DNA of 64,000 nucleotides from a virus (taxonomy: Duplodnaviria; Heunggongvirae; Uroviricota; Caudoviricetes): the IMG/VR virus record IMGVR_UViG_2562617087_000024; one strand, 5' to 3'. Below the pieces are notes generated by a model. The model was not told the DNA's origin and did not search any database. It saw only the letters and a program-made list of their open reading frames with translations. Below, in pieces: positions 20,473 through 35,970 of the stretch (within the stretch, counting starts at the first letter, position 1; every line of letters starts with the position of its first letter). The position numbers and the translations under genes are program-made.

Positions 20473-22917
20473 TTAAAAATCAGCCTGATTCGGGATCAGT
20501 TTTTGCCAGATAGCTGAAACGTATTTTGCCTGGTAACGAGCGTCATCCAGCGCATTGTGGCGCTCACCTTCGAATGGAATAGCCGTTCTGGCATCGAAGT
20601 CTATGGCTTTCCCCAGCTCAACGATTGTGCGTACATCGCGATCGTTGTAGTAACGCCACGGGCAGGGGATCCCCTGCCGTTCGTATGAACGGCGCAAAAT
20701 CGTGTTGTCGAAGTTGGCTCCATTTCCCCAGACCTGAACAAAAAATTCACCGGAGTTTTCGTCGATAAATTCCCGCAATTGTAACAGTGCATCATCTAAC
20801 GGGATTTCATCGGTCATAATGGCAGATTGCGCTTCGCGTGATTGCTTAAGCCACCATTTAATGGTGTCCCGATCAATGACTCCGCCAGCAGTTTCCAGAT
20901 CGATAGTCTTACTAAATTCCGGTCCCATATCTCCGGTTTGCGGATCGAAAAATATTGCACCTATTGAGATAATCGGGGCATCAGGATTTTTTCCCATGGT
21001 TTCAAGGTCGATCATTAGATGGTCACACGTCCTGCTGGTGGATGTGATAATGCGATGACCGTTCACCGTAATTAAGGGATCTGCCGTCTCGCCAGTTTCA
21101 CTATCGCTGGCGTGGTCCTGAGCGCTGCCAGCATTCTCCTTGTGTGGATGTTCAGCGCCTTCCATTTTCTCCGAATCGTCTTCCTGAACTTCAACCAGGT
21201 TCTTGTCATCGAATGTTTCCTGGTATGTTGCGTCGCCCATCACCGCGCCACAATCAGGGCAGTTGCCGCCACTCCTCTGACCGCAGGCGGTGCAGATCTT
21301 TTCCGGTTCCTGTTGCACTACTGGTTCAGGTTGTTTCGTTTCTGGCTCGTTTTGTTGCGTATTTGGGCTGTTCTGTTCCGCTTTCTGGTCGTTCTGTTCC
21401 GTTTCTGGCTGATTCTGGTACACAGAATCGCGGGTCTGGATCCCCTTAATCCATTTCGGATCATTCGGGTCGCTAATCCCTTCAACAAATTCTCCGCGAG
21501 AGGCAGCCAGTAATTTGTCTGCATCGACAGGATTTTGGGGCGGAATGTTTTTCCGGGCTTCATGGAGTTCTGCCCGCAGTTTCTGATATTTCGCATCAAC
21601 AGAATTTATCTGTGGCTGAGCATCCATCGACTGCGTGTCCTGATTATGTTCAGTTGTATCCGGTTCCACTGCTTCAGTCGTTGCCTGTTCATCTGCCATT
21701 GCGCCAGATGGCTGCGGTTTTTCTTCATCATCCTGTTTTCCTTCTTTTGTTACACGCTGCGGCATTGGAGCAGAGGAGCGACCGCAGGCAATATCCACGA
21801 TTTCTGGATCAGGGTTGGCATGGTCGGTTTCGGTCAGTACTTTGTTCAGATATTCGGTAACACGGTGGGGAGTAGCCTCGATACCAATTGGTGCTTCTTT
21901 CACGGACGCAACCACTATCGCGCGGGAATAATCCAGGTGACCAGGCATGGCGATGAATTTGTCACGAAAAACAGAAAAGGGCGGCTTATTCTCTGAAACG
22001 ATTTCTTCAATGCGTTTGGCGTGTGCCGGATGTGGATTGTAAATATCGATGTCCATTGAACGGGCCAGAACGCCAGCGGCAACGTCACGTTCTACTGACG
22101 CATCATCGTGGACAAAACCTTCACCGCGATCGGTAAGAATTCCTCCGCCAGCATTAGCGCCGGATGGCGTGCGGCTGATGCGTAAAACACGATTTCCTTT
22201 CATCCACTCTTTTGTCAGCAGACCTCGATCGGTATAGTCAGCGTCCAGGTATGCTTCGAAAAAAGCAGTCATTAACCCCAGACTGGAATTAACGGGATTA
22301 GGGAAAACTTTGTCTGTGTCGCGTACCAGTTTGTGAAGGTCGCGAATCTCCAGCGGGTCGAGCAGCTTTGTGTTGTGGGAAATAGCCAGGGCAGTAACAG
22401 CAGGCAGTTCTTCAGCTCGTGCGATATGTAATGCCTGAAGTTCTTCCCGTGAAACGTGCGTTACCGGTTTTTCGCTGCCATGTTGCGCAAGCCAGCGAAT
22501 GGGCAGTTCCTGACCGGAAATCGGCAGGAGCATATTATCCTCAATCTCAGCCATGTCTTCGCCATTGACGTTGGTATTGTCAGAGCTGGCTGGTTTGTCC
22601 TGAACTGAGGGGGAAGGCGCTATAAATATCATTGTGATGCCATCTTCCCCGCCTTTTTCATAGCGGTTGCAGAATTCAGTATCGAACACACCTTCAGGCG
22701 GCAGGTCATTAACAATGGGCAAATTCACGCGAACAGGTTTTTTGAAATCCTCTTCGTCAAATCCAGCATCGTCCATTGCGACAACACCCCGTGATATTGC
22801 AACCGATAATTTTTTTGCTGTGCGCCAGTAAAAACCGCCTTTAATCCCAAGGCGTTTTCTGACTTTGTCATTTTTGGCTTCGTAATACAGTGCAATTTCT
22901 TCTTTATCAGTGCTCAT
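20473..22917 (-). CDS. RecE-like exodeoxyribonuclease VIII family protein with C-terminal DnaQ-like (DEDD) 3'-5' exonuclease-type domain
   Basis: 814 aa; central region matches recalled RecE ([39 protein letters not shown]…); C-terminus has MIDLETMG…GANFD…[10 protein letters not shown] exonuclease motifs; Cys4 ribbon in between. Confidence 0.65.
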
Positions 22918-23009: not shown

Positions 23010-23198
23010 TTATCCAGCCGGTATTTCGTTATTCAGGTACAGCGATACTTTGTTTAACGGGAGACATTCACCGGAAATTTTTTGCTCGTCTCTTGCCTGA
23101 TGGCAGGATTCTTTACTGGCATAAATTCCGGTAATCACATTCTGTGGCTCACCTGTTATAAGAAAAACCGTCATCATCAGTGCAAACGCTGAACTCAC
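23010..23198 (-). CDS. small protein in ydfD position of dic operon (hypothetical)
   Basis: 62 aa ORF overlapping dicB stop; position as ydfD in Qin-type dic operon. Confidence 0.45.
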   Translation of the reverse strand: MSSAFALMMTVFLITGEPQNVITGIYASKESCHQARDEQKISGECLPLNKVSLYLNNEIPAG

Positions 23199-23383
23199 TG
23201 CTGCCCTCCGAAAATGCCAAGTTCAAGAAGGGCAATTCTGGAGAGTATGGAATTATCATTGAGAAGATAAGGCTCATATTTTCTCATCCTGATGGCGTCT
23301 TCAGTAAACTCCCGGTTACTGAGCAGAATACCAATATTAAAACACCCTTCAGACGTATTAACGTTTGGTAGTGACGTTTCCAT
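23195..23383 (-). CDS. dicB: cell division inhibitor DicB
   Basis: 62 aa, METSLPNVNTSEGCF…FTEDAI matches recalled K-12 DicB N-terminus. Confidence 0.85.
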   Translation of the reverse strand: METSLPNVNTSEGCFNIGILLSNREFTEDAIRMRKYEPYLLNDNSILSRIALLELGIFGGQQ

Positions 23384-23555: not shown

Positions 23556-23608
23556 GGGCGGCAGAGCAGTCACGGAGTAAAACTGATACCGCCAAACGTC
23601 ACCAGAAA
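23556..23608 (-). ncRNA. dicF: DicF small regulatory RNA
   Basis: Minus-strand sequence tttctggtgacgtttggcggtatcagttttactccgtgactgctctgccgccc identical to recalled 53-nt E. coli DicF, followed by T-run and flanking processing stem. Confidence 0.9.
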
Positions 23609-29682: not shown

Positions 29683-30041
29683 TTAATCGTATCAAGCTGG
29701 AGCACATCCTCGAATATGCCAGGCAGCAGAGGCATATTGGTCAGCATTGTAAAATTCCACCAGGAGATATGGTTGAAATCATGGAGATTGCCATGCGCAA
29801 GGCTGGCAATTCTCCGGTAACTCCGGATGGTTGGATAAGCTGTAGTGAGCGAATGCCGAATACCAAAACAGCCGTTCTTGTTGCCGTGGAGTTTGACAGG
29901 AAAGGTGACTGGCGAATGAAATTGGCTACTTACATCCCGGGGCATCCTGACGCTAATGATGGGTGGATAATTCCTGGTGCGTCGTGGAAACCGTCACACT
30001 GGATGCCGCTACCAGAACCGCCGCAGGAGGTGCGCCAATGA
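29679..30041 (+). CDS. hypothetical protein (120 aa; DUF551 suspected)
   Basis: Overlaps previous stop; domain assignment is from memory only. Confidence 0.45.
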   Translation: MINRIKLEHILEYARQQRHIGQHCKIPPGDMVEIMEIAMRKAGNSPVTPDGWISCSERMPNTKTAVLVAVEFDRKGDWRMKLATYIPGHPDANDGWIIPGASWKPSHWMPLPEPPQEVRQ

Positions 30042-30506
30042 TCTGGCCTGAAGCCTTTGCAATTACAGGCGTTGCTATAGCTATTGATTTTTTAGTATAT
30101 GTTATTTGTCGGTGGGGGTAAAAACGTTCGCCGGGATTCACACCAAAGGAGGGAATATGTCGGATGATATTTCACTGGCAATGGAAGGTGCGCTGGCTGT
30201 TATTGCTGTTGTGGGCGTTTACTGCCTGGTTGTGTTTTTGATGGATCGACTAGGGAACTGAATTCATTACGATATGGGAATTCCCATATCGGGTAAAAAC
30301 GGTTTGCGGTAAAGCGAGAGTTAAGTAGAATTGCTGCGGGTGCTTGAGGCTATCTGCCTCGGGCATGAACACCAACGGCAGATAGAGAAAAGCCCCAGTT
30401 AACATTACGCGTCCGGCAAGACGCTTAACATTAATCTGAGGCCATATCTATGCTCTACACACGTAGGTTAGCCTCTTACGTGCCGAAAGGCAAGGAGAAG
30501 CAGGCT

Positions 30507-30662
30507 ATGAAGCAGCAAAAGGCGATGCTAATCGCCCTGATCGTCATCTGTTTAACCGTCATAGTGACGGCACTGGTAACGAGGAAAGACCTCTGCGAGG
30601 TACGAATCCGAACCGGCCAGACGGAGGTCGCTGTCTTCACAGCTTACGAACCTGAGGAGTAA
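30507..30662 (+). CDS. Hok/Gef-family type I toxin
   Basis: 51 aa MKQQKAMLIALIVICLTVIVTALVTRKDLCEVRIRTGQTEVAVFTAYEPEE, closely matching recalled HokC/Gef; structured leader upstream and terminator 30720-30752. Confidence 0.8.
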   Translation: MKQQKAMLIALIVICLTVIVTALVTRKDLCEVRIRTGQTEVAVFTAYEPEE

Positions 30663-30879
30663 GAGACCAGGCGGGGGAGAAATCCCTCGCCACCTCTGAT
30701 GTGTCAGGCATCCTCAACGCACCCGCACTTAACCCGCTTCGGCGGGTTTTTGTTTTTATTTTCAACGCGTTTGAAGTTCCGGACGGCGCCGGAATAGAAT
30801 CAAAAATACTTAAGTAGCGCGCAGGGAGAAGAGGGATGGACCCCGAACAGGGGAGTGCTATTTATCTGGAAGGATTCTG

Positions 30880-35417: not shown

Positions 35418-35493
35418 GGCCCTTTAGCTCAGTGGTGAGAGCGAGCGACGCATAATCGCCAGGTCGCTGGTTCGAATCCAGTACAACGCGCCA
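35418..35493 (+). pseudogene. degenerate tRNA-like sequence (ileZ-type tRNA-Ile2 remnant)
   Basis: ggccctttagctcagtggtgagagc…ggttcgaatcc has intact D- and T-arms but G at position 33 and a 3' acceptor strand that cannot pair with the 5' end. Confidence 0.5.
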
Positions 35494-35970
35494 CACTTAT
35501 TTTCCCTGGCTCGCTTTTGCGGGCCTTTTTTTAAATGTCTCACAATTCAGGCGGTTGACTGTTGTCTGGTTTGCGGGGAGTTTGTTAAAAGAAACTGGCA
35601 TGGTGAATCCCCCTGTGCGGAGGGGCAATCAGCAACCAGGTATATGTGATAATCGCGGATTCAGGTGCTGATACTGAATTCACCGGGAGGCACCCGGCAC
35701 CATGCAAGAAAAAGAATGTGCATGCAAACATGCCCCTCTCCGGAGGGGCTTTTTTATGGGTAAAAAATGCCCGAATGGGTTCGGGCAATAGCATGAGATA
35801 CTGATATTGTTGTGTTGTTATCGTGTGGATTTTAACCAGGGTTTATCAGGCTGCGCAACTGCGTGGCCTTTTTTCATTTCTTGGGCTGTAGTCCCCGTGT
35901 GTCATTCAGGCTTCCGGACTACAGCCCACTCCATATCTGATTTAATACACTATCCCGGCCGGGAGGAATA

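Follow-up and report, generated by a model that had tools for sequence, protein, structure and literature searches.

A complete, probably functional hok/mok/sok cassette in a lambdoid prophage of Escherichia coli O157:H7, the full-length counterpart of K-12 hokD

The 64,000-nucleotide (nt) stretch of Caudoviricetes DNA recorded in IMG/VR as IMGVR_UViG_2562617087_000024, hereafter called the window, carries at positions 30290-30757 a type I toxin-antitoxin cassette of the hok/mok/sok type. As judged from its sequence, the cassette is very probably complete and probably functional, and belongs to the HokD/HokW subgroup. Of the sequence and structure features that define the hok/sok family (Pfam PF01848, Rfam RF01794), all those open to in silico testing are present. 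The element is an ordinary, already known hok/sok cassette, and it is the full-length counterpart of the truncated hokD (relF) of Escherichia coli K-12. The window coincides exactly with positions 1718264-1782263 of the E. coli O157:H7 EC4115 chromosome (NC_011353.1). Several O157:H7 chromosomes contain a 471-bp segment of the locus with 100% identity, and similar DNA is found in 4728 of 5426 complete E. coli genomes, at a median of 2 and a maximum of 10 places per genome (8 places in EC4115). The observation therefore goes beyond chance. The cassette is intact, with no insertion sequence (IS), frameshift or truncation, unlike hokC and hokD of K-12.

The toxin gene had been described in the initial annotation as encoding a Hok/Gef membrane protein of 51 amino acids (aa), and profile searches agree. 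The open reading frame (ORF) covers the full HOK_GEF profile of Pfam (positions 1-42; E=1.2e-23; 82.9 bits against a cutoff of 22) and matches PHROG 251, 'MokW-like host killing' (2.8e-33). The corresponding RefSeq protein is labelled 'type I toxin-antitoxin system toxin HokD'. Alignment to the hokC and hokD loci, which had been suggested as a check, gave a match to both: the protein is 100% identical to K-12 HokD and 82% identical to HokC, with mok and sok at positions equivalent to those of hokC. Identity reaches 92% with HokW and 41% with Hok of plasmid R1. The identical K-12 protein, RelF/HokD, is reportedly toxic.

Conservation was assessed on phage copies from IMG/VR. A pattern scan returned 120 phage contigs, and the alignment built from them comprised 83 unique copies with at least 85% identity. 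Positions 30336-30356 were fixed by the search pattern, which makes the conservation of tac (translational activator) in this set meaningless. They were excluded, and K-12 hokB and R1 were used for tac instead.

The in-frame extension of hok up to ATG 30450, suspected earlier to be a mok-like leader ORF, corresponds position for position to the annotated mokC of K-12. The last 51 codons of this 70-aa frame begin at the hok ATG (30507), and mok and hok share one stop codon, as in mokC. The start aligns with the annotated starts of both mokC and mokB, and a predicted Shine-Dalgarno sequence (SD), GAGG, lies 8 nt upstream. All 83 homologues have the mok ATG, and 73 of them preserve a 70-aa mok in frame with hok. 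One allele, present in 9 of the 83 copies (e.g., IMG/VR L008, L012, L027 and L040), lacks 2 nt immediately downstream of the mok ATG, leaving a mok of 19 aa. By reading of the frame, its stop would be a TGA overlapping the hok ATG, which suggests termination-reinitiation instead of in-frame read-through.

The 5' end of the hok/mok mRNA was placed at 30338 from the start of the Rfam model and from the alignment to the 5' end of R1 hok mRNA. In a gathering-threshold scan of the whole window, RF01794 ('sok') matched 30338-30512 on the plus strand with full model coverage (111.7 bits against a gathering score of 59; E=1.4e-24). The model is written in the sense of the hok mRNA, with tac first and the hok AUG last: the match marks the leader, not the Sok-encoding strand. 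The leader had been presented as structured and about 200 nt long. Its structured nature is supported by the Rfam match and by the fold of the 415-nt RNA (30338-30752; z=-6.55, none of 100 shuffles folding as well), while its length from the predicted start to the hok AUG comes down to 169 nt. Counted from 30338, the AUG of mok occupies nt 113-115 and that of hok nt 170-172. The corresponding R1 positions are ~116-118 and ~174-176, as taken from the numbering of T117/G118 and G176 (PMC9841398). At the other end, a strong terminator had been drawn at 30720-30752. A hairpin at 30731-30748 and its T-run were indeed found, and positions 30720-30730 belong to the 3' part of fbi (fold-back inhibition) and a spacer.

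The promoters of hok and sok were both placed by homology, a generic sigma-70 scan having missed them. The -10 hexamer of the hok promoter and the TT.GC of its -35 hexamer are kept in the 83 homologues, and the DNA farther upstream is variable. The sole match of the generic scan in the vicinity (plus strand, 30425-30454) is located inside the leader and is probably due to chance.

The elements of the hok mRNA switch were identified along this transcript (Table 1). In full-length hok mRNA, pairing of tac with fbi closes the 5' end onto the 3' end, and ucb masks the mok SD. After 3' trimming, the tac/ucb and mok-SD/dcb stems form, and both mok translation and Sok binding become possible. A 5' metastable hairpin blocks co-transcriptional translation (PMC9841398). 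In the window, tac and fbi form 12 bp with a single bulge (-21.5 kcal/mol), and tac pairs with its metastable partner at -18.3 kcal/mol and with ucb at -10.7 kcal/mol. The mok SD region (30436-30442) can pair with ucb (-8.2 kcal/mol) or with dcb (-9.3 kcal/mol). The minimum free energy (MFE) structure of the 415-nt full-length RNA contains both the 5'-3' closure and the ucb/SD pairing (GCC/CAG with the mok SD region). The tac/ucb and SD/dcb stems appear in the Rfam consensus structure aligned to the window. Moreover, the tac/fbi complementarity is kept by compensatory changes in K-12 hokB (U7-A to C7-G and G12-C to A12-U; -21.8 kcal/mol) and in R1. The Sok-target hairpin has an upper stem (30446-30452/30462-30468) and a 9-nt loop holding mok codons 2-4, and folds at -13.2 kcal/mol.

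An antisense Sok-like RNA had been expected opposite the leader, and at the sequence level a candidate is present. Projections of the annotated K-12 sokC and sokB through the alignment agree on the same ends (30458 and 30382). The predicted RNA consists of a ~15-nt single-stranded 5' tail, a long hairpin and a CUUUUCUCUAU tail, with a fold of -31.8 to -36.6 kcal/mol (z=-4.1). It is about 18 nt longer than sokC, sokB and the Rfam consensus, as a GC-rich insertion extends the hairpin. On the minus strand of 30300-30520, where a promoter and terminator pair had been suggested as a check, TTGCCT-N17-TAACCT is followed by the long hairpin and a U-rich tail. This promoter, Psok, aligns with Psok of R1 (TTGCGC-N17-TATCCT), and its hexamers are identical to those of the validated sokW. 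Indeed, the window is identical to the validated hokW-sokW locus from 30463 to 30506, up to the hok ATG. In the 83 homologues the -35 hexamer of Psok is invariant and the -10 hexamer nearly so.

Table 1 Features of the hok/mok/sok cassette and RNA genes found downstream, in window coordinates
Feature	Position	Strand	Description or basis
Predicted hok/mok promoter	30304-30331	+	-35 TTGCGG (30304-30309), 16-nt spacer, -10 TAGAAT (30326-30331)
Full-length hok/mok mRNA	30338-30757	+	~415-420 nt; Rfam start, terminator, fold
tac (translational activator), GGGUGCUUGAGG	30338-30349	+	mRNA 5' end; pairs with fbi, ucb and the segment just downstream
tac partner in 5' metastable hairpin of the nascent transcript	30356-30366	+	Duplex energy; fold of the 3'-trimmed RNA
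ucb / anti-SD box, AAAGCCCCA	30389-30397	+	Masks mok SD; alternative partner tac; nearly invariant
Sok-target hairpin	30438-30475	+	mok SD GAGG(C) 30438-30442 paired with dcb GCCUC 30471-30475
Hypervariable patch	30443-30464		Both sides of the invariant mok ATG; Sok 5' tail / target loop and internal loop / mok codons 2-5
mok-like leader ORF (N-terminally extended Hok)	30450-30662	+	70 aa, in frame with hok
Predicted Sok-like antisense RNA	30458 to 30382	-	77 nt; projected from annotated K-12 sokC and sokB via alignment
Sok promoter (Psok)	30465-30493	-	-35 TTGCCT (30493-30488), 17-nt spacer, -10 TAACCT (30470-30465)
hok Shine-Dalgarno, AGGAG	30493-30497	+	Read from sequence; invariant across all reference loci
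hok (HokD-type) toxin gene	30507-30662	+	51 aa plus stop; Pfam PF01848, RefSeq WP_000813254.1
fbi (fold-back inhibition), CCUCAACGCACCC	30712-30724	+	Complementary to tac
Intrinsic terminator of hok mRNA	30731-30757	+	7-bp GC-rich stem 30731-30748, UUCG loop, T-run
tRNA-Met	35423-35493		
STnc100	35569-35761	+	149.9 bits; overlapped by a RefSeq pseudo-CDS fragment
Anti-sRNA AgvB	35762-35823	-	96.5 bits

The closest characterized relative is hokW-sokW (mokW/hokW; the 'gef homolog' of VT2-Sakai), carried by the Stx2 prophage Sp5 and phages of the 933W type in O157:H7. Nucleotide identity is about 94% over 30294-30734. The two loci share the promoter region, tac, ucb, the extended Sok hairpin, the Psok hexamers, the hok SD and fbi, as well as a 70-aa in-frame mok and a position in the nin region of a lambdoid prophage. 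They differ at about 7 of 22 nt in the allele at 30443-30464 and at the C-terminus of the toxin (TAYEPEE here, VDYESEK in HokW). Homology stops just past fbi, and the 3' terminators are therefore different. The host prophage described here is integrated at ompW and is not Shiga toxin-converting, unlike that of hokW-sokW. HokW arrests growth, and sokW expressed from its own promoter prevents this arrest; mutations in the -10 hexamer of the sokW promoter restore toxicity, and sokW supplied in trans rescues the cells (PMC8621323). Smaller RNAs and a partial dependence on RNase III and Hfq were also reported for hokW (PMC8621323). The refuting outcome named in the initial annotation, no antisense transcript and no toxicity on expression, is largely addressed by these published data on a paralogue.

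The comparison with K-12 hokD in the cryptic prophage Qin clarifies the status of the locus. The 51-aa proteins are identical, and the coding sequences (CDS) differ by one synonymous change. The 3' untranslated region (UTR), fbi and the terminator are identical, and the downstream order rem - ydfU(DUF968) - Q is conserved; the ORF downstream of hok in the window is 73% identical to Rem. Near-identity with Qin begins only at about 30494, at the hok SD, and runs through the CDS, the 3' UTR and the terminator into rem. In K-12, relBE (relE) is located immediately upstream, and the hok promoter, tac, ucb, mok start, Sok target and sok gene are missing. The K-12 gene is therefore a copy truncated at its 5' end, whereas the cassette in the window is complete. 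A relBE-hokD operon arrangement of the K-12 type was considered for the window and rejected, as no relBE is found and the full leader is present.

Other members of the family show the same organization to different degrees. The hokC/mokC/sokC (gef) locus of K-12 has an in-frame mok sharing the hok stop, an identical tac, an equivalent sok position and a toxin with 82% identity. In contrast to the window, it has lost its 3' end with fbi to IS186, and its sokC hairpin is without the ~18-nt GC-rich extension. The prototype of the family, hok/mok/sok (parB) of R1, has the same order and spacing of tac, ucb, the mok SD and AUG, Psok, dcb, the hok SD and AUG, and fbi; the Psok hexamers align. Its Sok hairpin is shorter, and the locus is plasmid-borne, with a role in post-segregational killing. 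In R1, mok is out of frame with hok (an offset of 58 nt, against 57 nt here), and mokB is also out of frame. As for the abundance of such loci, 14 Hok/Gef genes are reported in O157:H7 Sakai (PMC2887945). Faridani et al. 2006 contains nothing on O157 or hokD copies.

The location in a prophage, also proposed in the initial annotation, is confirmed by the RefSeq gene neighbourhood. The cassette is part of the nin region of a lambdoid prophage that is inserted at ompW and structurally complete, with the gene order int, xis, dicB/DicF, repressor/cro, replication, nin, hok, rem-like, DUF968, RusA, Q, lysis, head and tail. The orientation of hok is that of the early-right operon (cro-O-P-nin-Q). 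Its upstream neighbours are a DUF551 gene and small ORFs. In RefSeq, the locus is represented by the 'hokD' CDS alone, and the mok ORF and sok RNA are unannotated (30382-30506, or 1748645-1748769 of NC_011353.1).

In the 83 copies, mean minor-allele fractions are 0.00-0.03 for ucb, the Sok hairpin, Psok, the hok CDS, fbi and the two SDs, which are near-invariant, and rise to 0.24-0.37 in the variable DNA upstream of the hok promoter and downstream of the terminator. Within phage genomes that are themselves mosaic, the cassette thus behaves as a conserved module.

The mechanism best supported by these data is canonical hok/sok control, that is, a stable closed mRNA, slow 3' activation, mok-coupled translation of hok and an unstable antisense repressor. 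The sequence and structure elements and their conservation come from the present analysis, while toxicity, antitoxin activity, 3' processing and RNase III cleavage are carried over from close homologues. A weak promoter (~30304-30331) would produce an mRNA of ~415 nt starting at 30338. In the full-length RNA, tac would pair with fbi and ucb would mask the mok SD, leaving the RNA neither translated nor bound by Sok. Slow trimming of the 3' end would remove fbi, and tac would then pair with ucb, exposing the mok SD and AUG in a hairpin. Translation of mok from ATG 30450 would bring ribosomes to the hok start at 30507 and yield the 51-aa inner-membrane toxin. A constitutive, unstable antisense RNA of ~77 nt, transcribed from 30458 to 30382 on the minus strand, is predicted to pair with the mok start region of the processed mRNA. 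This pairing would block translation of mok, and hence of hok, and target the duplex to RNase III. Once Sok synthesis stops, the pool of stable mRNA would be translated and Hok would depolarise the membrane. Read-through from the early-right operon after prophage induction could also silence Psok. This last step, which we infer ourselves, is proposed because the cassette is co-oriented with that operon and Psok fires against it.

Several observations weigh against this reading of the locus. Both promoters are poor compared with the sigma-70 consensus: the hok promoter scores 8/12, under the threshold of the generic scan, and the sok promoter 7/12. Promoters of hok genes are known to be weak, which fits the score obtained here. 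The MFE structure of the 3'-trimmed RNA contains no tac/ucb stem and keeps a 5' hairpin of the metastable type. A single-sequence MFE is thus no dependable guide to the refolded state, which is supported by the Rfam consensus structure and by the duplex energies. The 5' tail of the predicted Sok differs from that of the validated sokW at about 7 of 22 positions, and its terminator-like end CUUUUCUCUAU is a weak U-tract. Furthermore, Sok expression and Hok toxicity are, for this particular copy, predictions drawn from its homologues.

As for the biological role, stabilisation of the prophage and abortive infection, both suggested in the initial annotation, are plausible by analogy with R1 and speculative. 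With the same mechanism, the main role of the cassette could instead be that of a lysis or release helper firing on prophage induction, as for hokW-sokW. After mitomycin C treatment, sokW disappears and HokW accumulates in a RecA-dependent manner, and deletion of the hokW-sokW locus halves the release of Sp5 phage (PMC8621323). The present cassette occupies the same kind of position in a nin region, co-oriented with early-right transcription and convergent with Psok. Nevertheless, the evidence for release comes from one study on a different prophage and amounts to a two-fold effect, and hok/sok of R1 is reported to exclude T4. Such a role also presupposes that the ompW prophage is inducible. 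We regard it as a serious possibility, falling somewhat short of probable.

Two further explanations would deny the cassette its activity or its control. The copy might be an inactive relic, silent or non-toxic and passively carried by the prophage, like most chromosomal hok loci of K-12 (hokA, hokC and hokE being disrupted by IS elements and hokD truncated). Chromosomal hok loci are often degenerate (PMC2887945), with K-12 hokC cut by IS186 and K-12 hokD without its leader; the weak promoter matches point the same way, and the many copies in O157 (8 places in EC4115, 14 Hok/Gef genes in Sakai) would make any one of them dispensable. However, all elements are intact and strongly conserved in the 83 phage copies (entropy of 0.07 for the hok CDS, with ucb, the SDs and Psok near-invariant), no IS, frameshift or truncation is found, the protein is identical to HokD, and the near-identical hokW-sokW is active (PMC8621323). 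A relic is thus quite improbable. An orphan toxin, expressed only as a passenger of the early-right operon without working antisense control, in the way K-12 relF is expressed from the relBE promoter, appears more improbable still. The orientation shared with cro-O-P-nin-Q, the K-12 orthologue read from an upstream operon without sok, and the absence of sok from the RefSeq annotation of the locus would be consistent with it. Yet the cassette has its own promoter, tac, ucb, mok and Psok, all conserved, which would have no reason to persist under read-through only, and sokW, driven by an identical promoter, is needed to neutralise HokW (PMC8621323). Canonical hok/sok control, with antisense repression by Sok, remains the preferred explanation.

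Within the otherwise near-invariant cassette, one patch around the mok ATG is hypervariable. Its mean minor-allele fraction is ~0.25, against ~0.02 in the neighbouring elements, and it diverges 7.4 times as much as the remainder of the transcript. About six discrete major alleles can be distinguished, and the two O157 elements compared here, the window and hokW, do not share one. From what is known of R1, the patch presumably lies where recognition by Sok begins. The Sok-target hairpin persists in nearly all alleles, with 92% of cells paired across 20 alleles. In the same 20 alleles, no base pair was found changed on both sides and the shuffle control was uninformative, so that covariation gives no independent support for the structure.

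It may simply be that the patch is the least constrained part of the cassette, as a cis-antisense pair stays complementary whatever mutates. The alleles could also define specificity, or 'incompatibility', groups, allowing independent control of several hok/sok copies in one O157 genome, or of those of a resident and an incoming phage; relatedly, read-through would shut off Psok and tie the release of Hok to induction. We consider this combined proposal rather unlikely. A search of 5426 genomes with allele-specific 34-mers gave no sign of allele avoidance between co-resident copies. Allele A was found at 566 places in 525 genomes (1.08 per genome) and allele F at 708 places in 609 genomes (1.16 per genome), against a rough expectation of ~1.07 places per genome under independent assortment, derived from summary statistics. 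Some genomes, including that of O157:H7 TR01, carry the allele of the window twice. The two usable same-genome pairs in IMG/VR both had different alleles, but so would about 87% of random pairs.

Other features of the window were recorded alongside the cassette. Two tiny ORFs immediately preceding the hok promoter encode hydrophobic products of 27 aa (30038-30121) and 34 aa (30157-30261; a RefSeq hypothetical protein), neither of which has a match in Pfam or PHROG. A weak terminator-like hairpin is found at 30212-30228. The small RNA (sRNA) DicF (23556-23607, minus strand; 76.7 bits in Rfam) adjoins dicB (23195-23383, minus strand), with ydfABC-like genes nearby; this region is a Qin-type immunity and division-inhibition module. 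Downstream of Q and a DNA methyltransferase gene, three RNA genes are clustered at 35423-35823, the last two abutting each other (Table 1). Positions 1-18150 begin with the end of an adjacent lambdoid prophage (J, Lom, tail fibres) and continue with an island of type III secretion system effector genes (nleA, nleH1-2, nleF, nleG and espM1), among which IS remnants are interspersed. The site at which the hok-bearing prophage is attached is marked by a piece of ompW at 18882-19007. A gene with an exonuclease domain (20474-22917, minus strand) is annotated as frameshifted, which hints that the otherwise complete-looking prophage may be partly defective.

The discovery value of the locus is small: hok/sok is a textbook type I toxin-antitoxin system, its abundance in O157 prophages has been published, and a copy with ~94% identity has already been characterized. 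The interest is mainly practical, for the mok ORF, the Sok RNA and the completeness of the locus are invisible from the RefSeq annotation. The name 'hokD' fits the protein and not the architecture of the locus, and it conceals that the locus is intact where the K-12 copy has lost its 5' part. Moreover, as the Sok tail occurs in discrete alleles, probes and knock-downs must be allele-specific in strains with multiple copies. These alleles also provide a small natural set for testing antisense specificity.

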